Of a DNA stretch of 64,000 nt, positions 30,504-39,326 are shown piece by piece. Position 1 is the first letter of the stretch. Each line of letters opens with the position of its first letter. The position numbers and the translations under genes are program-made. The notes beneath the pieces were generated by a model that saw nothing but the letters and a program-made list of their open reading frames with translations, was not told where the DNA came from and ran no database searches. The DNA is taken from assembly GCA_000004985.1 (NCBI GenBank), contig GG738895.1. One strand, written 5' to 3'. Source of the DNA: Naegleria gruberi. Its lineage: Eukaryota.

Positions 30504-31664
30504 TTAATTAAATATCAAATAATTGTTCAAACTATTAAAAAGTTCTGTATCCGAAGGTTTTGAATTCATTTCTCTAATTAATTTCTTCCAATCTTTACAT
30601 TTAATTTCTTCTGGTTGGTTATTTTTTGTAATTGTCTTGAATTGTTGAACCATTACTTGACCTGCCTTTTCTAGTAAGTTGATTTCTACATTTGGAAGAA
30701 ATTGAACTATAAATGGATTTTTTTCAACTAATTTCTCAATCAATTGTGGATCTTTTGAAAATTTTTCATCAACTATTTTCAAACATTTTGCATCCTTCGC
30801 CACCAATTCCATTTCAAATTCATCCAAATTTGGAATTTCTGAAATAATTACTGATTTGTAAAATCTATAATTCATTCCATTCAAAGAAATTGCTTTCATT
30901 AAAAAATCTCTATTTCCTACAAATTTGGAAGGTATATCATTAATGATATAATCATCCACTTCGACTGCTTTTAATACAACTTGTTCATCATTTTCCCATG
31001 GTTCAATATCTCCAATCCAATATATTGGAAGTCCATATTCGAAACTCTTAATGAGTAAATCCTTATTTTGGAGTTTCCAATCTAGACCTTGATGGGTTGG
31101 GTCAATTTCGATTTGTTTGGAGATGAATTCTCTTGAATTAAGTAGTGATTCGTCAACTCCTGAGAGGACTATTCCAGATTTCATGGCTTGGAGAACAAAA
31201 TCCACATTCGAAAGTAAACTATTGTTTTCTCTAGCCATTTCAGCATAATCCACAACTATATCCGTTTGAAAAACTGTATTCAGCAGTCTCTCCTCAGCAA
31301 TTTCATAAACAAGCTTTCTTTCTTCTTCAGTTAATTGTACTAACTTTCCAATAGCTTCAAAAACTAAACTACCTAATCTATTTCTCATATCCAGAGTCAT
31401 TTCCTTCCAAGCATGTTTCCAAAAATCTTGTCTTTTCAACACTGAGAAGGGAAGATCAAAAAGTAAATTCAATACTAATAAATGGCCATTATTAAATAGT
31501 CTGAAAATCCAATACGAATCTTGTGTGAAAAGTTTTATTAGAAATGGAGCGAACGGAAGAAGTTTTGATAATTGGTGCAAGTGATGATTGCTTTCGTATT
31601 GGTGCGATAGCAAGGCAAGGTCTTGAGATAAATCAAATAATTGGAACGAAACTTGTTCAGACAT
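30504..31664 (-). CDS. Hypothetical protein with DUF4116-like repeats
   Basis: 386-aa ORF with A-tract+ATG. It has repeated segments of the form D.e.VLkAv..d.y.i..ip..f..n.dF (VDFVLQAMKSG, EQVVLKAVEVDDYIINDIPSKFVGNRDFLMKAISLNG, ELVAKDAKCLKIVDEKFSKDPQLIEKLVEKNP). Confidence 0.5.
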   Translation of the reverse strand: MSEQVSFQLFDLSQDLALLSHQYESNHHLHQLSKLLPFAPFLIKLFTQDSYWIFRLFNNGHLLVLNLLFDLPFSVLKRQDFWKHAWKEMTLDMRNRLGSLVFEAIGKLVQLTEEERKLVYEIAEERLLNTVFQTDIVVDYAEMARENNSLLSNVDFVLQAMKSGIVLSGVDESLLNSREFISKQIEIDPTHQGLDWKLQNKDLLIKSFEYGLPIYWIGDIEPWENDEQVVLKAVEVDDYIINDIPSKFVGNRDFLMKAISLNGMNYRFYKSVIISEIPNLDEFEMELVAKDAKCLKIVDEKFSKDPQLIEKLVEKNPFIVQFLPNVEINLLEKAGQVMVQQFKTITKNNQPEEIKCKDWKKLIREMNSKPSDTELFNSLNNYLIFN

Positions 31665-31800: not shown

Positions 31801-31874
31801 TGCCTCCCTTGGGAATCGAACCCAAGACCTCTGTCTTACTAGGACAGCGCTACTGCCAACTGAGCTAGGAAGGC
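31801..31874 (-). tRNA. tRNA-Thr (anticodon AGU)
   Basis: The reverse complement GCCTTCCTAGCTCAGTTGGCAGTAGCGCTGTCCTAGTAAGACAGAGGTCTTGGGTTCGATTCCCAAGGGAGGCA folds as a cloverleaf. The anticodon loop is CUAGUAA. A T-run lies downstream. Confidence 0.95.
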
Positions 31875-33611: not shown

Positions 33612-34388
33612 ATGCAACAAGATCAAGAAGATGCCACAATAGTTTTCCTGCATGATTTCGCTTTCTATAACCAAAATTCTTCCTCGGAATACTTGGTCAA
33701 TCTCTTGAAGAAAAACCTGTCAAGGCCAAGGACAAGATTTAACATGAAAAAAGTTGACAGTTTCCAAGATTTGGAATTGAGAGAAGATTTACTACGAGGA
33801 GTGTATGGATATGGATTAAAACAATTATCAGAAATTCAAACTAAATGTATCATGCCAATAATATCATCCGAACCACCACTAGATGTTGTTTGCATTTCAA
33901 GCTCGGGGACTGGAAAGAAAACTGCATTCTCAATTGCTCTTCTCCAAAGAATAGACTTGGATCATCAAGCGTACTCTAAAGGAGCACCTCAAGCTCTAGT
34001 TATTACACCTACGAGAGAAATGAGTCAAGTCATTTCTAATCACATCAAGAAATTGGCTCATTATTTGGATGTCAAAGTATTACCTTTCCATGGAGGAGTT
34101 TCAACCAAAGAAACAATCCAAGCTCTAAATGAAATTCAACATGTAGTTGTTGGAACAAACAAATTGATGGACTTAATCAGGTTTAAAGTTTTGAATTTGA
34201 AATATTTGAAACTGATAATAATTGACAGAACAGGTTGTGATTGGCTCGACATGTATGATCAACAGATTTTGAGAATTATCAATGCATCAAACAAATTCAA
34301 CCTTCAAATATGTGTCTTTGGCGATTCGAGAAATATAGGATCGATTGAACAATATCTGAAAGATCCAATTTATTGTGAACTGGAGTAG
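33612..34388 (+). CDS. eIF4A-like DEAD-box helicase domain 1 only, with degenerate catalytic motifs (pseudo-helicase, copy 1)
   Basis: The protein is collinear with eIF4A RecA domain 1. The Q-motif region is FQDLELREDLLRGVYGYGL..LSEIQ. Walker A is SSSGTGKKT, and PTREMS replaces PTRELA. VVGT is present. DEAD is replaced by IIDR and SAT by VFG. It ends at the DPI...E domain boundary. Only ~295 nt remain before the next gene, so no domain 2 can be encoded. Confidence 0.7.
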   Translation: MQQDQEDATIVFLHDFAFYNQNSSSEYLVNLLKKNLSRPRTRFNMKKVDSFQDLELREDLLRGVYGYGLKQLSEIQTKCIMPIISSEPPLDVVCISSSGTGKKTAFSIALLQRIDLDHQAYSKGAPQALVITPTREMSQVISNHIKKLAHYLDVKVLPFHGGVSTKETIQALNEIQHVVVGTNKLMDLIRFKVLNLKYLKLIIIDRTGCDWLDMYDQQILRIINASNKFNLQICVFGDSRNIGSIEQYLKDPIYCELE

Positions 34389-34683
34389 AACTCGACAATC
34401 AGAGTATGTTGATTTGTATGCATCATGTCAACTCTGCTGCATATTCATTAAGCAATATTGGACCAAGTCAAGTGATATCTTCTCCAATTTTCAATTCCCT
34501 TGGTGAGTCTCAACTCTTCATTGATATTCAATGATTTTCCTTTTAATGGAAGATTATTTGAAGAGATTAATTACTAGAAATTAATTAGTCTGTTTGGAAA
34601 GTTAAGTTACAAAAATTACAGTAAATCTAGTTATTGGTTAAAGTTCTCAATAACGTATCATAATTAAATACTTTACAAAAAAA

Positions 34684-35775
34684 ATGGGAAACAATCAACA
34701 ACCCACATCCCAACCACCAGTTTTAAAAGATGGCGCTCTTCCGAGTGTTAGTACTCCATCATCAGCATGTTATGAACGCACATTAATGCAAGAATATTTT
34801 CCTAATAATTGTAAATTAATTCGAGTTTGTGATCATGATGAAGAAAATCGAAGGAAACAAGAGGAGAATTTGAAGAATTATCGGGAGAAATACTTGTCTC
34901 GATGTAATGGAATATTGGAGAAGATGTTACCTGAGGAAATTATTGTTGAAATTTTGTATTACTTGCCAATGAAGAGTTTGATCAAATTACAAATGGTTTC
35001 AAAGAATTTTCGCTTGTATTGGACTGAACTTCCTGGATTGTGGGATAAATTTTCAGATTATCCCAAAATGATGTATATTCCAATGGTATACGAAAGTATG
35101 AGAAGTAATTTTGGATATTATAATGAATTTAGACAAAAATTAATTAATTTACATGAAAAGCCAACACGAAATTTTGATTTTACTGGATATCAATACAAAG
35201 CCATCGTTTTGGGAGATAAAAAGTGTGGGAAAACCATTTTGCATAACAGAGTCTTCAAAGGCGAACCATTTTCTCAAGAATATGTCTATACGATCGGAGT
35301 AGATTTTTCTACCACAATTTCCAAACAAAACATATACATTCAATCTTGGGATACAGGTGGAGATGAAAGATTTAGAACAATTAATATCAATTTCTTTAGG
35401 GGTATGAAAGGCCACTTTTACTGCTTTGATTTGAATAATCACGAGTCATTTGAAGTAATGAAGGACATTTTTCAAGATTGGAAGAATGTATATCTCAAAG
35501 GTGAAGACCTTAGTTCATATTTTACTAAGATTTCATTCGCATTGGTGGGATTGAAATCAGATTTGGAACGCAAAGTATCAAGAGATGAAATTCATGAATT
35601 CTTGGAAAATATTGAACCACTGAAGGATAAGACTTTGCACACCAGTAGAGTCCAATACTTTGAGTTGAGTTCTAAAGAAGATTCAATTTCAGATTTACTT
35701 TTTCCATTTGTCTATAGTTATCATAATGTAATGGAAATACCAAGGCAATATTCAACAAGTATAAGTGAAATGTAA
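34684..35775 (+). CDS. MG-start + F-box + Rab-like small GTPase fusion protein (copy 1)
   Basis: The N-terminus is MGNNQQ. The F-box reads LPEEIIVEILYYLPMKSLIKLQMVSKNFRLYW. The GTPase motifs are G1 GDKKCGKT, G2 YTIGVDF, G3 WDTGGDERF, G4 GLKSDL and G5 ELSSKE. There is no C-terminal Cys. Confidence 0.75.
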   Translation: MGNNQQPTSQPPVLKDGALPSVSTPSSACYERTLMQEYFPNNCKLIRVCDHDEENRRKQEENLKNYREKYLSRCNGILEKMLPEEIIVEILYYLPMKSLIKLQMVSKNFRLYWTELPGLWDKFSDYPKMMYIPMVYESMRSNFGYYNEFRQKLINLHEKPTRNFDFTGYQYKAIVLGDKKCGKTILHNRVFKGEPFSQEYVYTIGVDFSTTISKQNIYIQSWDTGGDERFRTININFFRGMKGHFYCFDLNNHESFEVMKDIFQDWKNVYLKGEDLSSYFTKISFALVGLKSDLERKVSRDEIHEFLENIEPLKDKTLHTSRVQYFELSSKEDSISDLLFPFVYSYHNVMEIPRQYSTSISEM

Positions 35776-35924: not shown

Positions 35925-38900
35925 TTAAATCATTAAGAACTGAACAAAGACCACTAAGCACAATACTTCAGTAACAAAATAGCTAGCATTAGCAACAGAA
36001 ACTCTATCCGATTTTCCAGGTGAACCCCTTCTTGATGGTTCTGGAATTGGTTGGGAAGTACTACTTTTTGGTTGTGGAATAGATGGTTGTGGATTAACAG
36101 GACTCTCTCCATTACAATTCATCTCATAAGCTCCAATATCTGGTGCCTTTCCATAATAAGGCATTCCAACATTAGTTCCCTTATCAATCAATGTAATGTT
36201 GCTGTCACATCTCAATCTAAAATCATTAGCCAAATAATCTTTGAAATAATTGGTGGCATTATTGTAATTATTTTCAAAAATGGTGTTTGGTCCAATAACT
36301 GGTTTCCAAATACCTTGGAAATAGCTCCCAACAATTGCAATATAATTGTAATCAGTTTCCCAATATGGAAGAAGATCAAACTTTGCACTAGAAGTTCCAA
36401 TATTCAAGTCAACCAACTGAATAGTATTGTCCAAGAAGGCATTATTCTTCATGGAAACACTTCTTGGATAGTAACTAATCATTGCCGAATCAAAAATTGC
36501 TTGGAATACCAATTCATCAAGAATGGATCTTGTCAACCCTCTTACTTCCTCAATAATTGAAAGACCAGCATTTGAATACGAGAAAGCACCTGTACTGGAG
36601 CTTAATAACCCTCTTTTTGTAACAGCAGTCCAATATGGATAAGCAAGACCATCTTGATCCAATTGAGGAAGAACATAATCTTTGTGAACTGACATGAAAT
36701 TAGTGTCATTAATCACATTGTTAATGAAATTGATAATTTCAGCCTTATCACCACTTGTTAAATCTGAAGCTGTAGAATAAGATCTAATTCTTGATACAAG
36801 AGTTTCATTTTTGGACCAAACTAATTTGTTTCCATTTTCGGTTGGGTTTACAATACTGTTAAAAAGAGTATTCCAATTTGAAGTGGTAGTACTATCTATC
36901 AAAGCACATCTGCTATTATCTGTCTTGACAGCAAATCTCAAAAATGATTGATAGAATTGATTATTATGCAGCACAACTCTAGCAGCATGATTGACACCAA
37001 CTGGACCTCCAATAAAGACATTTCGTCTGAAGATAACTAAACCATTTTGTTCCATCCACATGTTCTGATTACCAAGTTTGTTAATCAATACGTTATCTTC
37101 GAGAACAATGTTATTGATATTGGTAAATTGAATATTATCTGGATGTTGACGATATGAAGTTTGATGCTCAACTCGATTGTTTTTGATTAGAATATTCCAA
37201 TTACTATATGCCAATTGAGTTCCAGAACCAACCCAAATACCATTATTATAATTCTTGTAAATGTACATGTTCTTAATTTGTGAATCGTTCACCATACTTG
37301 CAAAGTTTACACCATTGTTGTGATTATAACTAATCTTGCCGCCATCAACATTAATATTAGTTGCATCTCTGAAACTAAATCCATTTTCACCATTTCCATA
37401 TGAAGAGCAGTTCAATAATTGAACACTATCAGTGAATTGACCAAAAAATCCCATTGAAGCATACTTTCTAAACATCATATCTTGAACAATTAAACCATCC
37501 CCGTAAACTATTGAAATGCCATTGGTCAAGGCAGATGCTTCAAGCATGACACCACTCACCTTAGGATCCTTATCAAGTGAAACTTGAATGATATTTCCTT
37601 CTGCGGTATATTGATTAGCACGAGAGAATGATCCAATATGATTGGCAATAGCATACGAATCTTTCAAGACTATTCCCATTGGAGTAGTAAGTCCTGGCGG
37701 AATGGCATTAATTCCAATAGTATTGGTAGTGGCATTGTAATAGATAATTGTTCGAGGTTGAATGGCATTTCCAAATTGATTGTAATGGTAGAAATCAGCA
37801 CCAACCCAGAAATTATCTGAAACAGGATTTCCTGCAGCATCATATTTGAACATGTCATCAACTTCCAAATAGACTATTCCATTTAAAGTGTATGAAACAT
37901 TCTTTGGAGTGAGATAATTAGTATGATCATATTCATCATCCAAATCATATGGAAGAGGTTTCATTGCCAAACTCAATTTCTCGCCATCTGCATAAATATA
38001 CGAAGTTGAAACTTGAAGTTGACCCTTATAGATGGAAATTGGTGTGGACATGACCTTTTCCAAATTTTTAGGATCAATAATTAATGAACCATCCAAAACT
38101 GCTGAATAAGTTTTGGAATTTCCAGAGGAAGGAGTTGGTGGATTCAAAGGTTTGATAGTAATTGGATGTTTGGAATGGGTTGGGCGATCAAAATAGATTG
38201 ATTCTCTATAGATACCATTTCCAACAATTAAGGTGTCATCTGGAAGTAACATGTATTGAGCTGCATTCAAAGTTGACCAAGCAGAAGATAGACCAAGACC
38301 ATCATTAGAATCGGATCCACTCAATTGATTAACATAGTAGGTCAATCCATTTCTGTTGTGCATTTGTTTACCTTGATAAACAGTAACAGATTGAGATCTC
38401 AAAGTTGCTCCTTTGGAATTTCCTGGATTTCTGTCATAAAAACCAAATTTCAAGATTTTAAACTTTTGAATAGCACTAGAATCGGTATCTGTTACAATGA
38501 CTTGATAATCATTAGCACTGGAACCCAATTTAGCCAACTGAATTGAAATTCCATTTGAAGACCATTCAGCATAAAGTTTGTAAGTGGAATAAAGCAATGG
38601 GACATGAATTAATGCTAATTTGGAGCTAGAATATAAGCGAACAGATTGACCATTCATAATTCTGGTAATGGACATGGTTGGATACAAACTAATCTTGTAA
38701 TAATTGTTTTGGTCAACCAGGAGAACAAAACCAAGATCATAGCTGGTAGATAGAAAACCAGTTTGCAAATTGCTTGAAAATGTAACACCATCAGTAGTGT
38801 CATACGGAGTGTCATAGGTGACAATCGAATCATTTTGATAAATTTGCAACAATTGACTAGCAATACCAACATTTCCTTTTTGGGTATTCCAACCAGCCAT

Positions 38901-39326
38901 GCCATTGCTAAAATTACTCTGCATCAACACCTTCAAACTATTTGGAGTAGGCAATGCAATAGATTGAATAGTAATCATGTGAGTAATGGTTATCTTTTTC
39001 CCATTCACATCATTATACGAAACGTTTCTCATCACCACAGTTTCGCCAATCGATTGTGTACTATAAACCAGAGCTGAATTATAATTATATAAACCAGTTT
39101 TCAATGGAGAACCATCTGCCATTGAATAAGCGATCTGAACTGAAGTTGAAGAATAGGAATCATTGAAATAGGTAATTCTTGGATTTAAAATTACTGAACC
39201 GAATTGATGCATGATAACTTTCTGGATGGGAGTAACGTAGAGTACATCCTGAACAGTTTGTGCATGTGTAACGGTATGAAAAACTGTCAGGAGGAGCAAA
39301 ATGACAAGTGGCAGTTTTGCTTTCAT
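35925..39326 (-). CDS. Large secreted right-handed beta-helix (pectin-lyase-fold, PbH1 repeat) protein with C-terminal Pro/Ser stalk and hydrophobic tail
   Basis: 1133-aa intronless ORF with signal-like MKAKLPLVILLLLTVFHTVTHA. It has a run of PbH1-like turns (NGISIVYGDG.., NGENGFSFRDATNINV, NHNNGVNFAS, NYNNGIWVGS, NIQFTNINNIVLEDN). The C-terminus reads PQPSIPQPKSSTSQPIPEP...LCLVVFVQFLMI. Confidence 0.7.
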   Translation of the reverse strand: MKAKLPLVILLLLTVFHTVTHAQTVQDVLYVTPIQKVIMHQFGSVILNPRITYFNDSYSSTSVQIAYSMADGSPLKTGLYNYNSALVYSTQSIGETVVMRNVSYNDVNGKKITITHMITIQSIALPTPNSLKVLMQSNFSNGMAGWNTQKGNVGIASQLLQIYQNDSIVTYDTPYDTTDGVTFSSNLQTGFLSTSYDLGFVLLVDQNNYYKISLYPTMSITRIMNGQSVRLYSSSKLALIHVPLLYSTYKLYAEWSSNGISIQLAKLGSSANDYQVIVTDTDSSAIQKFKILKFGFYDRNPGNSKGATLRSQSVTVYQGKQMHNRNGLTYYVNQLSGSDSNDGLGLSSAWSTLNAAQYMLLPDDTLIVGNGIYRESIYFDRPTHSKHPITIKPLNPPTPSSGNSKTYSAVLDGSLIIDPKNLEKVMSTPISIYKGQLQVSTSYIYADGEKLSLAMKPLPYDLDDEYDHTNYLTPKNVSYTLNGIVYLEVDDMFKYDAAGNPVSDNFWVGADFYHYNQFGNAIQPRTIIYYNATTNTIGINAIPPGLTTPMGIVLKDSYAIANHIGSFSRANQYTAEGNIIQVSLDKDPKVSGVMLEASALTNGISIVYGDGLIVQDMMFRKYASMGFFGQFTDSVQLLNCSSYGNGENGFSFRDATNINVDGGKISYNHNNGVNFASMVNDSQIKNMYIYKNYNNGIWVGSGTQLAYSNWNILIKNNRVEHQTSYRQHPDNIQFTNINNIVLEDNVLINKLGNQNMWMEQNGLVIFRRNVFIGGPVGVNHAARVVLHNNQFYQSFLRFAVKTDNSRCALIDSTTTSNWNTLFNSIVNPTENGNKLVWSKNETLVSRIRSYSTASDLTSGDKAEIINFINNVINDTNFMSVHKDYVLPQLDQDGLAYPYWTAVTKRGLLSSSTGAFSYSNAGLSIIEEVRGLTRSILDELVFQAIFDSAMISYYPRSVSMKNNAFLDNTIQLVDLNIGTSSAKFDLLPYWETDYNYIAIVGSYFQGIWKPVIGPNTIFENNYNNATNYFKDYLANDFRLRCDSNITLIDKGTNVGMPYYGKAPDIGAYEMNCNGESPVNPQPSIPQPKSSTSQPIPEPSRRGSPGKSDRVSVANASYFVTEVLCLVVFVQFLMI

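Follow-up and report, generated by a model that had tools for sequence, protein, structure and literature searches.

Among DEAD-box proteins, the translation initiation helicase eIF4A is the archetype; all of its regulation that we know of operates via other proteins binding to it. Degenerate versions of the DEAD-box fold have been described as scaffolds: the two-domain pseudohelicases Utp25 (Def), of the SSU processome, and MUT-15, of the C. elegans CPUG complex, are ancient or essential components of known complexes and keep both RecA-like domains (PMC9539457; bioRxiv 10.64898/2026.09.04.749402). Isolated eIF4A N-terminal domains (NTDs) have been produced as recombinant fragments (yeast 1QDE/1QVA; human 2G9N), which have intact motifs and bind nucleotide, and we found no precedent in the literature for natural NTD-only eIF4A paralogues. 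The gene studied here lies in a 64-kb stretch of Naegleria gruberi DNA, which was analysed as a whole and is called the window below. Like Utp25 and MUT-15, its product has a DEAD-box fold with degenerate catalytic motifs, but it consists of a single RecA1 domain and belongs to a recent, multi-copy family found in one protist lineage, which we call half-helicases. Like the recombinant fragments, it ends within a few residues of the crystallographers' cut; by contrast, it is encoded in a genome, its active site is mutated, and it appears to be under selection.

The focal gene and its two parts are the following.

33612 to 34388, plus strand: focal gene NAEGRDRAFT_72139, an NTD-only eIF4A paralogue; intact ORF of 258 aa, with DEAD as its only Pfam domain
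33612 to 33743, plus strand: aa 1-44, the N-terminal tail; it is homologous to that of eIF4A and contains an insert of ~17 aa
33750 to 34379, plus strand: RecA1 (DEAD) domain core (aa 47-256), from the phmmer match over aa 47-253 and block-mean pLDDT values of ~82-98

The ORF is present exactly as an earlier note on this DNA, made from the sequence alone, had claimed, and the entry P0001 matches its product at 100%. In RefSeq, the corresponding protein (XP_002672749) starts only at the internal Met45; one argument for the longer N-terminus adopted here is that gene calls made independently in a second strain have 264 and 270 aa. The tail is also conserved in frame in the two other N. gruberi paralogues, half2 and half3 (16 of 44 residues identical), with a codon-position identity in the order 2>1>3 and a dN/dS of ~0.31, and the three paralogues, including the focal gene, share an A-tract (ttaaaaaaATG) directly before the upstream ATG. 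Pfam and structural comparisons, both of which the earlier note had recommended, agree with its view that the protein is collinear with the whole first RecA domain of eIF4A. PF00270 (DEAD) matches aa 74-207 with E=4.8e-20 (72 bits, cutoff 26), while PF00271 (Helicase_C) gives only sub-threshold noise located inside RecA1 (16.5 vs 23.5 bits). The best PDB sequence matches in phmmer are the eIF4A-I DEAD-domain crystals (aa 47-253, E=4e-29), with scores of 105 bits for eIF4A-I, 101-103 for yeast eIF4A, 91 for eIF4A-III and 73 for DDX39B. An AF2 model built from a 57-sequence alignment has a pLDDT of 86, above 90 in the core and below 50 at aa 1-22, the tail being predicted as disordered or of low confidence. 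Foldseek returned eIF4A DEAD domains as top matches to this predicted structure (2g9n_B, TM 0.88, rmsd 2.7 A; TM 0.86-0.89 across 2g9n, 5zbz, 7ddx and 1fuu), and its ranking likewise puts eIF4A-I/Tif1 closest, rather than eIF4A3, DDX39, DDX6 or Dbp5. CMS1 (PF14617), which Pfam describes as a 90S pre-ribosome subunit, was considered and rejected: since the match at aa 117-210 (E=0.011) reaches only 15.6 of the required 35 bits and the region is explained by PF00270, the focal protein is not a member. We conclude that the focal protein is a stand-alone eIF4A-derived RecA1 domain.

Motif registers were taken from ungapped HMMER and MAFFT alignments to eIF4A, and each motif was audited against the 78 positions that are invariant in 10 full-length eIF4A NTDs.

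33813 to 33839, plus strand: Q-motif region, GLKQLSEIQ for canonical GFEKPSxIQ, with Gln76 kept (alignments)
33897 to 33920, plus strand: degenerate motif I (P-loop), SSSGTGKK for canonical AQSGTGKT (ungapped alignment)
34008 to 34025, plus strand: motif Ia, PTREMS for canonical PTRELA, largely kept (4 of 7 invariant positions)
34092 to 34097, plus strand: GG doublet, kept (motif audit)
34152 to 34163, plus strand: motif Ib region, GT-NK for canonical GTPGR (Pro deleted, Gly to Asn, Arg to Lys)
34224 to 34235, plus strand: dead motif II, DRTG (D205-G208) for DEAD (1 of 6 invariant positions left)
34320 to 34328, plus strand: dead motif III, GDS (G237-S239) for SAT (0 of 5 invariant positions left)

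The focal protein retains 34 of the 78 positions (44%); only 1 of 11 is left in motifs II and III together, and 9 of 15 in the RNA-contact motifs Ia, GG and Ib. None of the ATP-binding and hydrolysis motifs I, II and III is intact. The earlier note had read an insertion into Walker A and had equated DEAD with IIDR and SAT with VFG. In the ungapped alignment, GKT is replaced by GKK without net insertion, so that the Mg-coordinating Thr becomes Lys, and both other registers were wrong: the true equivalents are D205-R-T-G208, with Arg in place of the catalytic Glu, and G237-D-S239. This correction does not affect the earlier note's verdict of dead catalytic motifs, and, as it had said, PTRE(M), GG and HVVVGT are kept. 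We also considered, and dropped, a change in charge or pI in favour of RNA binding: no consistent signal emerged, and the comparison was flawed by alignment ends.

The end of the gene coincides with the end of the domain.

34362 to 34388, plus strand: C-terminal end, DPIYCELE plus stop; last RecA1 beta-strand, cut at the inter-domain linker
34389 to 34683, plus strand: downstream spacer without RecA2 coding potential, with stops in all three frames

The ORF stops 5 residues past 'DPI' (AF2 strand at 253-256), and all six half-helicases known to us in N. gruberi and Willaertia magna finish 2-8 residues beyond (D/N)P(I/V), the same structural boundary. Stops close each of the three frames in the 295 bp that separate the focal gene from the next one, leaving, as had been claimed, no room for a second domain. 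An annotation or assembly artefact, in which the ORF would be the first part of a two-domain helicase gene with the rest spliced in or lost, could be suspected from the imperfect RefSeq models of the half genes, which have the wrong start, and from the introns of N. gruberi, about 0.7 per gene (PMC5862402). However, no RecA2 was found anywhere in the 64 kb with a 53-sequence eIF4A-CTD profile HMM run on the six-frame translation with filters off (best E=1), and tblastn of the window with five full-length eIF4As matched only the NTD, with no hidden RecA2 exon. The region within +/-4 kb of two W. magna half loci contains no RecA2 either. Moreover, the same architecture is present at two other N. 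gruberi loci, in the independent strain assembly and at the W. magna loci, the parental eIF4A gene of N. gruberi has no introns, and the catalytic motifs are dead regardless. The artefact reading is thus essentially refuted, and we regard it as scarcely credible. Exon-defined truncation was also ruled out: the eIF4A gene being intronless, the truncation point does not lie at an intron. Similarity that seemed to run past the stop codon in the strain locus L001 turned out to be noise containing stops.

Compared with heterolobosean eIF4A (XP_002676412), to which it is 35-39% identical over the NTD, the focal protein has a homologous N-terminal tail, a complete RecA1 fold, a recognisable motif Ia, GG and Q-motif Gln and a shared 3-residue insertion before the P-loop. 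It differs from it by the absence of RecA2, hence of motifs IV-VI including the motif VI arginines, by GKK, DRTG and GDS in place of GKT, DEAD and SAT, and by an extra 5-residue loop (YSKGAP) and the ~17 aa tail insertion. That such motif losses abolish activity is established DEAD-box enzymology. Because RecA2 is missing and the motif II Glu, motif III and the P-loop Thr are lost, the sequence supports the prediction, already made in the earlier note, that the focal protein is neither a DEAD-box ATPase nor a helicase.

Two further features, a second gene and a lineage marker, bear on the origin of the family.

45766 to 46560, minus strand: paralogue half2, NAEGRDRAFT_72146, 264 aa, 48-50% identical to the focal protein
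33864 to 33881, plus strand: lineage marker, the 3-residue insertion SSEPPL between Q motif and P-loop (alignment)

N. gruberi holds three half-helicase paralogues, about 43-49% identical among each other, and a search of other genomes, as the earlier note had advised, added three in W. magna. The conserved second paralogue that it had mentioned is half2, whose P-loop (IGTGKT) is intact and in which DEAD is EEMS and SAT is GCA; an allele (P0178) is present in the second strain, on L001. Half3, like half2, keeps GKT, and both have an acidic motif II; the third N. gruberi locus is NAEGRDRAFT_72190. The insertion is found in all the halves and in the full-length eIF4A (TTSEPPAD) of N. gruberi, W. 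magna and Acrasis kona; neither eIF4A3-like sequences nor the eIF4A of fungi, animals and stramenopiles have it. Since this heterolobosean-only insertion is common to all of them, the half-helicases descend from the lineage's own eIF4A. In a neighbour-joining (NJ) tree that included the true N. gruberi and Acrasis eIF4A, the heterolobosean clade with the halves received 97% bootstrap support, and the Naegleria and Willaertia halves were monophyletic at 95%, inside eIF4A and apart from the eIF4A3-like outgroup; NJ is a distance method and the branches are long. A first tree that included the unrelated long-branch halves P0061, P0074 and P0100 gave 38% for monophyly and is superseded. R78K, V233I and the loss of Pro72 are common to all five halves compared. 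Against monophyly, the halves of each genus resemble the eIF4A of that genus more closely, by 1-4 percentage points. The NJ tree suggests that the half-helicases originated before the split between Naegleria and Willaertia.

No N. fowleri or N. lovaniensis orthologue was returned, though both proteomes are in the searched database, and the family may therefore be dispensable. Genomic neighbours differ at every half locus, and comparing the N. gruberi with the W. magna loci, and the paralogues with one another, revealed neither synteny nor co-duplicated neighbours. In JGI metagenomes, a single-protein scan with the focal protein found no relatives, and a family profile scan returned only generic DEAD-box genes, ~30% identical to it. 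A giant-virus or endogenous viral origin was rejected, given the absence of any IMG/VR relative of the family profile, the uniform base composition and the host-specific insertion, which argues for cellular descent. NTD-only or NTD-array derivatives of eIF4A exist in other eukaryotes.

The half-helicases might be non-functional relics, that is, partial-duplication pseudogenes that are still open by chance. Their destroyed catalytic motifs would fit this explanation, as would the lack of a returned orthologue in the two other Naegleria species, a rate between strains ~3 times that of a neighbouring housekeeping gene (half2), and one strain allele that alters the GG motif (G165A). Against it, all six ORFs, of 235-270 codons, are intact in an AT-rich genome and across two genera, with no frameshifts or premature stops relative to paralogues, and they share one domain boundary as end point. 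In all five half pairs, dN/dS is 0.30-0.42 (NG86), with a bootstrap 95% upper bound on pN/pS of at most 0.74, and the W. magna pair, at an unsaturated dS of 0.59, gives 0.35. Between the two N. gruberi strains, whose DNA is 98.2% identical, the half2 coding sequence carries 10 substitutions in 795 nt (1.3%) and no indels, as opposed to 25 substitutions in 530 nt (4.7%) and three indel events in the adjoining intergenic DNA, and is thus 3.7 times less diverged; the corresponding pN/pS of 0.40 is based on only these 10 substitutions, a number so small that relics could still be argued from it. The coding pattern of the N-terminal tail and the A-tract at the start codon, conserved at all loci, also speak against decay. 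Neither of the two observations that the earlier note had set beforehand as contrary to its reading was made: the 64 kb contain no downstream Helicase_C exon, and dN/dS is not neutral. Taken together, the substitution patterns demonstrate that the half-helicases are under purifying selection. Pseudogene status of the focal gene is accordingly unlikely, as the earlier note had argued, and the view of the whole family as relics seems to us quite improbable. Rather, the focal gene probably encodes a selected, non-catalytic protein.

What such a protein would do is suggested by the partners of eIF4A. The earlier note had proposed an eIF4A decoy or a regulator that binds RNA or eIF4G. The primary eIF4G-binding interface lies on the eIF4A CTD; the NTD interface gives only ~5% of the binding energy, and isolated yeast RecA_N shows no detectable eIF4G binding by ITC (PMC3064780). 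The primary surface, RecA2, is not encoded in the focal protein, and competition at eIF4G-MIF4G would require a newly gained affinity. By analogy with yeast, a plain eIF4G decoy is therefore disfavoured and is the least likely version of the decoy idea. A secondary eIF4G interface of yeast eIF4A involves E43 and R35, and full-length eIF4A carrying E43R bound eIF4G more strongly (PMC3064780). In the focal protein, the R35 equivalent is still Arg (R62) and Lys70 occupies the Glu43 position, but these equivalents vary among paralogues (LLSG in half2) and surface residues are poorly conserved between them (48% identity), which argues against one fixed conserved partner. Other ligands are known to dock on this domain, as PDCD4-MA3c and eIF4G-MA3 contact the eIF4A NTD (PMC3850090).

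Codon usage points to a low abundance: the ENC of the focal gene is 42, compared with 32 for eIF4A, and this weak codon bias suggests levels far below those of eIF4A, which is awkward for a stoichiometric eIF4A decoy. Exact-sequence look-ups of the 258-aa, 264-aa and 214-aa products returned no transcript-derived contig and are uninformative, as eIF4A returned none either; the supplements of one N. gruberi proteomics paper contain no match to the half-helicases, which is equally uninformative on expression. No mention of their locus tags or accessions was found in the literature, and a published survey of the components of eIF4F gives N. gruberi a single eIF4A, the three half accessions not being among its entries.

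The dead RecA1 could instead have been neofunctionalised outside eIF4F, as a structural or adaptor module recruited to another complex. Degenerate DEAD-box folds have precedents as scaffolds in the two-domain proteins cited above, and a change of partner would agree with the 44% of eIF4A-invariant positions retained, with the codon bias of an ordinary gene, with the unlike neighbours at every half locus and with a far faster evolution than that of eIF4A, whose sequences in Naegleria species share at least 90% identity. Nothing, however, points to any particular other complex, the tail still resembles that of eIF4A, several RNA-contact motifs can still be made out, and multiple divergent paralogues would be unusual for a stoichiometric scaffold subunit. 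We consider this possibility doubtful.

eIF4A is also a known toxin and drug target, and the RecA1 copies of these bacterivorous amoebae might absorb an eIF4A-targeting effector, viral factor or natural product. A lineage-specific, multi-copy and rapidly diverging family beside an ultra-conserved target would fit such a conflict, and the Foldseek matches include eIF4A complexes with BLF1 and rocaglates. This support is purely circumstantial. BLF1 acts on the eIF4A CTD, the positions aligned to the rocaglate contacts, which we take to be F163 and Q195 of human eIF4A1, are not conserved in the halves, and IMG/VR holds no viral homologue. A role in host-pathogen or toxin conflict is very improbable.

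Returning to a selected competitor for ligands of eIF4A, we propose the following origin and mode of action. The eIF4A gene of the heterolobosean lineage, which has no introns, would have been duplicated in part, giving a copy cut at the inter-domain linker, most likely before Naegleria and Willaertia diverged, and this copy would then have multiplied independently in each genus, to three genes each. Consisting of RecA1 and the N-terminal tail, a half-helicase would neither hydrolyse ATP nor clamp or unwind RNA, and would most likely act purely by binding. It may offer the RecA1 surface and tail of eIF4A to a ligand that usually docks on RecA1, competing with or buffering full-length eIF4A. 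As candidates for this ligand we see an MA3/HEAT-type protein similar to PDCD4 or eIF4G-MA3, some other binder of the NTD, or RNA, which motifs Ia, GG and Ib, in part preserved, could contact; cap-dependent initiation would be modulated as a result. We infer, on these grounds, that the focal protein is expressed, has such a ligand and affects translation. Competition for an eIF4A-NTD ligand in translation is a tentative proposal, which we hold to be somewhat more likely wrong than right; the composite picture of a selected, dead single-domain eIF4A derivative acting by ligand competition is plausible and falls just short of evenly balanced.

At the level of annotation, the automatic UniProt name 'ATP-dependent RNA helicase' is wrong for the half-helicases, and their RefSeq models begin at an internal Met; should the genes be unexpressed, the finding shrinks to this correction. 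In conclusion, the focal protein is a conserved single-domain pseudo-helicase and probably a binding protein. A selected family consisting of a dead first RecA domain alone would be a new type of pseudoenzyme, made of one domain and not of the whole core, and would offer a natural experiment on the isolated RecA1 surface in vivo. It is conceivable, though unlikely, that heterolobosean half-helicases tune initiation by titrating an NTD-binding factor or serve as sacrificial decoys that draw off natural products or factors of microbes or viruses aimed at eIF4A. If true, this would make them the first family of pseudo-helicases with a single RecA domain to have a regulatory role, and the NTD-only and NTD-array derivatives elsewhere hint that this may be a recurrent solution.

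The focal ORF (window 33612..34388, + strand) encodes a 258-aa protein whose collinearity with the first RecA domain of eIF4A, proposed in an earlier note from the sequence alone, was confirmed by domain, structure-database and model searches. Pfam assigned DEAD (PF00270, E=4.8e-20), the Helicase_C (PF00271) match being below threshold and misplaced, and phmmer against the PDB retrieved first eIF4A-I DEAD-domain crystals (E=4e-29, aa 47-253), with eIF4A-III (91 bits) and DDX39B (73 bits) ranking lower. The AF2 model reached a pLDDT of 86 (core >90) with a 57-sequence alignment, a depth-dependent result (five sequences gave a mediocre 62), and the top Foldseek matches were human and yeast eIF4A DEAD domains (2g9n_B, TM 0.88, rmsd 2.7 A). 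The N. gruberi half-helicase genes are:

33612..34388, + strand: focal half, NAEGRDRAFT_72139, 258 aa, on a scaffold of 333,733 bp
45766..46560, - strand: half2, NAEGRDRAFT_72146, 264 aa, 48-50% identical to the focal protein, the second conserved paralogue mentioned in the note
same scaffold, outside the window: third half, NAEGRDRAFT_72190, protein P0011 of 233 aa, full ORF P0159 of 270 aa
second-strain locus L003:2533-3345: allele of NAEGRDRAFT_72190

The last RecA1 strand coincides with the end of the focal ORF, five residues past 'DPI'. The 295-bp spacer beyond it carries stops in all frames and is followed by an F-box and Ras GTPase gene (34684-35775, + strand; F-box at aa 82-115, Ras/Roc-family small GTPase domain at aa 172-332). 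A six-frame search of the 64 kb with an HMM of 53 eIF4A C-terminal domains, filters off, revealed no RecA2 (best E=1), and tblastn with five full-length eIF4As matched the window at two places, by the NTD only. These data uphold the claim of a stop at the domain boundary with no room for domain 2, and the downstream Helicase_C exon that would have contradicted it was not found within 64 kb. We conclude from the sequence that the truncation of the focal gene is real. Since the parental eIF4A gene is intronless, the break is not exon-defined.

The RefSeq model, XP_002672749 ('predicted protein [Naegleria gruberi]', 214 aa, 100% identical to the focal product), starts at the internal Met45 (window 33612-33746); that of half2, XP_002672815 (217 aa; window 46419-46560), also starts internally. 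Met1 is the better-supported start for four reasons: the 44 codons ahead of Met45 form an open frame conserved across the paralogues (16/44 identical); their identity by codon position is 2>1>3, with dN/dS ~0.31; they align with the eIF4A N-terminal tail; and an A-tract, as at other starts, precedes the upstream and not the internal ATG, both in the three paralogues and in Willaertia. In an independent strain assembly, the gene calls are likewise the longer versions, of 264 and 270 aa. The conserved extension and the A-tract thus indicate products of 258 and 264 aa.

Ungapped alignments revised all three motif readings of the note: the supposed Walker A insertion is a Thr to Lys change (GKT to GKK) with no net insertion, and the equivalents of motifs II and III are not IIDR and VFG but those listed here.

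Motifs of the focal protein; positions kept refer to the 78 NTD positions that do not vary among ten full-length eIF4As; 34 of the 78 are kept.
P-loop: canonical GKT, focal SGTGKK
Q motif: 4/8 kept
Motif I: 5/9 kept
Motif Ia: 4/7 kept
GG: 2/3 kept
Motif Ib: 3/5 kept
Motif II: canonical DEAD, focal D205-R-T-G, 1/6 kept
Motif III: canonical SAT, focal G237-D-S, 0/5 kept

DEAD-box activity is known to depend on the Glu of motif II, the Thr of the P-loop and the arginines of motif VI in RecA2. Because all of these are missing, we infer from the known mechanism, in agreement with the note, that the focal protein can neither hydrolyse ATP nor hold RNA in a clamp.

The third N. gruberi copy, recovered by exhaustive HMMER over 1.84 billion representatives and cluster look-ups, retains the DE dipeptide (motif II DEFE) with a GTSKT P-loop; an MMR_HSR1-family GTPase gene sits 46 bp upstream. 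In other genomes, where the note had advised searching, HMMER, cluster look-ups and a profile search identified three Willaertia magna halves (KAL9649299, KAL9657223 and P0179). PF00270 is the sole Pfam match of every half, all end 2-8 residues past (D/N)P(I/V), and no RecA2 lies within 4 kb at the two W. magna loci examined. Catalytic decay varies by copy, DEAD having become DRTG, EEMS, DEFE or DQLD and SAT having become GDS, GCA, SQD, SLQ or SLN, while the half2 P-loop is intact. Database searches including both proteomes returned no half orthologue from N. fowleri or N. lovaniensis, which is only suggestive since one tool also missed the known third paralogue.

Several related sequences were encountered. 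N. gruberi XP_002668553 (P0413) is a 'partial' protein of 191 aa, encoded on a small separate scaffold of 6.8 kb, that shares at least 90% identity with canonical eIF4A; it probably represents a haplotig or a fragment of the assembly and not a further half. In unrelated eukaryotes, degenerate RecA1 domains of the eIF4A type occur in tandem arrays (proteins P0013, P0010, P0014, P0019, P0020), including ~7 repeats in Stomoxys calcitrans LOC106083760, four NTDs followed by one CTD in the trematode Calicophoron daubneyi and duplicated units in Mortierellaceae fungi; they may be genuine multi-NTD proteins or merged gene models. Further NTD-only eIF4A-like ORFs come from metagenomic or EukProt eukaryotes (loci L086:2175-2882 and L087-L089:5001-5681; proteins P0061 and P0100). 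Protein P0051 has the heterolobosean-type insertion, intact DEAD and SAT and a GRT P-loop, and P0074, which precedes a full-length DEAD/Helicase_C gene by ~800 bp, resembles a partial tandem duplicate.

That insertion, three residues (ILPITTSEPPADV) between the Q motif and the P-loop, is found in eIF4A of N. gruberi (P0314), W. magna (P0181) and Acrasis kona (P0310) and, as IMPIISSEPPLDV, in every half, and is missing from fungal, animal, stramenopile and eIF4A3-type sequences. In an NJ tree (202 NTD columns, 300 bootstraps; distance-based, with long branches), the heterolobosean sequences all group together with 97% support, the Naegleria and Willaertia halves with 95%, the halves of each genus with 100% and the eIF4As of the two genera with 94%; support was 38% in an earlier tree that included unrelated long-branch sequences. 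All five halves compared have R78K and V233I and lack Pro72, changes at otherwise invariant positions. The simplest history would be one partial eIF4A duplication pre-dating the Naegleria/Willaertia split, then independent expansions; as a caveat, the halves of each genus exceed by 1-4 percentage points in identity to the eIF4A of that genus.

Could the halves be neutral relics? Nei-Gojobori dN/dS, of which the note held that a neutral value together with absent expression would refute its reading, was 0.32, 0.38 and 0.42 among the N. gruberi halves, 0.35 for the W. magna pair, whose dS of 0.59 is unsaturated, and 0.30 for the comparison between genera, with pN/pS bootstrap upper bounds <=0.74. 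Metagenome ERR1078381 holds DNA of another N. gruberi strain, with 98.2% identity across 4.4 kb, allowing comparison of half2, adjoining intergenic DNA and a neighbouring S49 peptidase gene. The half2 CDS (795 nt) differs by 10 substitutions, of which 4 are synonymous and 6 non-synonymous, and zero indels, the 530-bp intergenic region by 25 substitutions and three indel events, and the peptidase CDS at 0.4% of sites. The eIF4A protein of this strain is identical to RefSeq XP_002676412, and N. fowleri, N. lovaniensis and N. gruberi eIF4A share one 90%-identity cluster. Judged by dN/dS and the strain comparison, the half genes are therefore constrained, yet far less than eIF4A. The spacer past half2 contains a run of six G-to-A strain differences within 10 bp (45486-45495) and a 23-bp indel at 45754, ~10 bp past the stop codon.

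The focal locus is flanked by a DUF4116-repeat protein gene (30504-31664, - strand) and a gene for a 1133-aa right-handed beta-helix protein (35925-39326, - strand; weak Pfam Beta_helix match); a 544-aa ORF lacking a Pfam match ends 31 bp before the focal ATG. The window has six tRNA genes, among them a tRNA-Thr(AGT) (31801-31874, - strand) that precedes the focal gene by 1.7 kb and a tRNA-Gly(GCC) (45360-45430, + strand) 336 bp past the half2 stop; their closeness to the halves is probably coincidental. At W. magna locus L004:2622-3920, a half gene begins 81 bp downstream of a PF01358-domain gene (E=1.9e-21; Pfam name poly(A) polymerase regulatory subunit). This domain is of the poxvirus VP39 cap 2'-O-methyltransferase type. 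An eIF4A derivative here adjoins a gene for an unusual, virus-like mRNA-cap enzyme.

With these motifs, the focal protein can presumably act only by binding. Isolated yeast RecA_N shows no eIF4G binding detectable by ITC, and the 'secondary' NTD interface, via R35 and E43, contributes ~5% of eIF4G binding energy (PMC3064780), which disfavours a simple eIF4G decoy. The idea stays open because the focal protein keeps the R35 equivalent and carries a Lys where yeast has E43; in full-length yeast eIF4A, the E43R change made eIF4G binding stronger (PMC3064780). The MA3 domains of PDCD4 and eIF4G are known NTD ligands (PMC3850090). On these grounds we favour, with moderate to low confidence, that the focal protein would compete for an eIF4A NTD ligand or touch RNA via motifs Ia, GG and Ib. 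Its weak codon bias (ENC 42 vs 32 for eIF4A and 29.5 for RPL28e) suggests low abundance, which is more compatible with titrating a scarce regulator than with titrating eIF4A's main partners. Exact-sequence look-ups with the focal and paralogue products matched no contig, and eIF4A itself was matched only in the DNA metagenome ERR1078381, from which N. gruberi transcriptomes seem to be missing from the index; the halves' identifiers are absent from one N. gruberi proteomics supplement. Competing explanations are a decoy for a pathogen or toxin, neutral relics and, by analogy with the two-domain pseudohelicases Utp25 and MUT-15, a scaffold in a complex unrelated to eIF4F; an annotation artefact is essentially excluded.

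The half genes are deposited but uncharacterised, under the UniProt auto-name 'ATP-dependent RNA helicase', and a eukaryote-wide eIF4F survey lists one N. gruberi eIF4A, the three half accessions not being among its entries. Our literature search found their identifiers in no paper and no description of natural single-RecA1 eIF4A paralogues. To our knowledge, DEAD-box pseudohelicases all keep both domains. We rate the halves, from their sequences, as DEAD-box-derived pseudoenzymes that, with a single RecA1, depart from this two-domain pattern.
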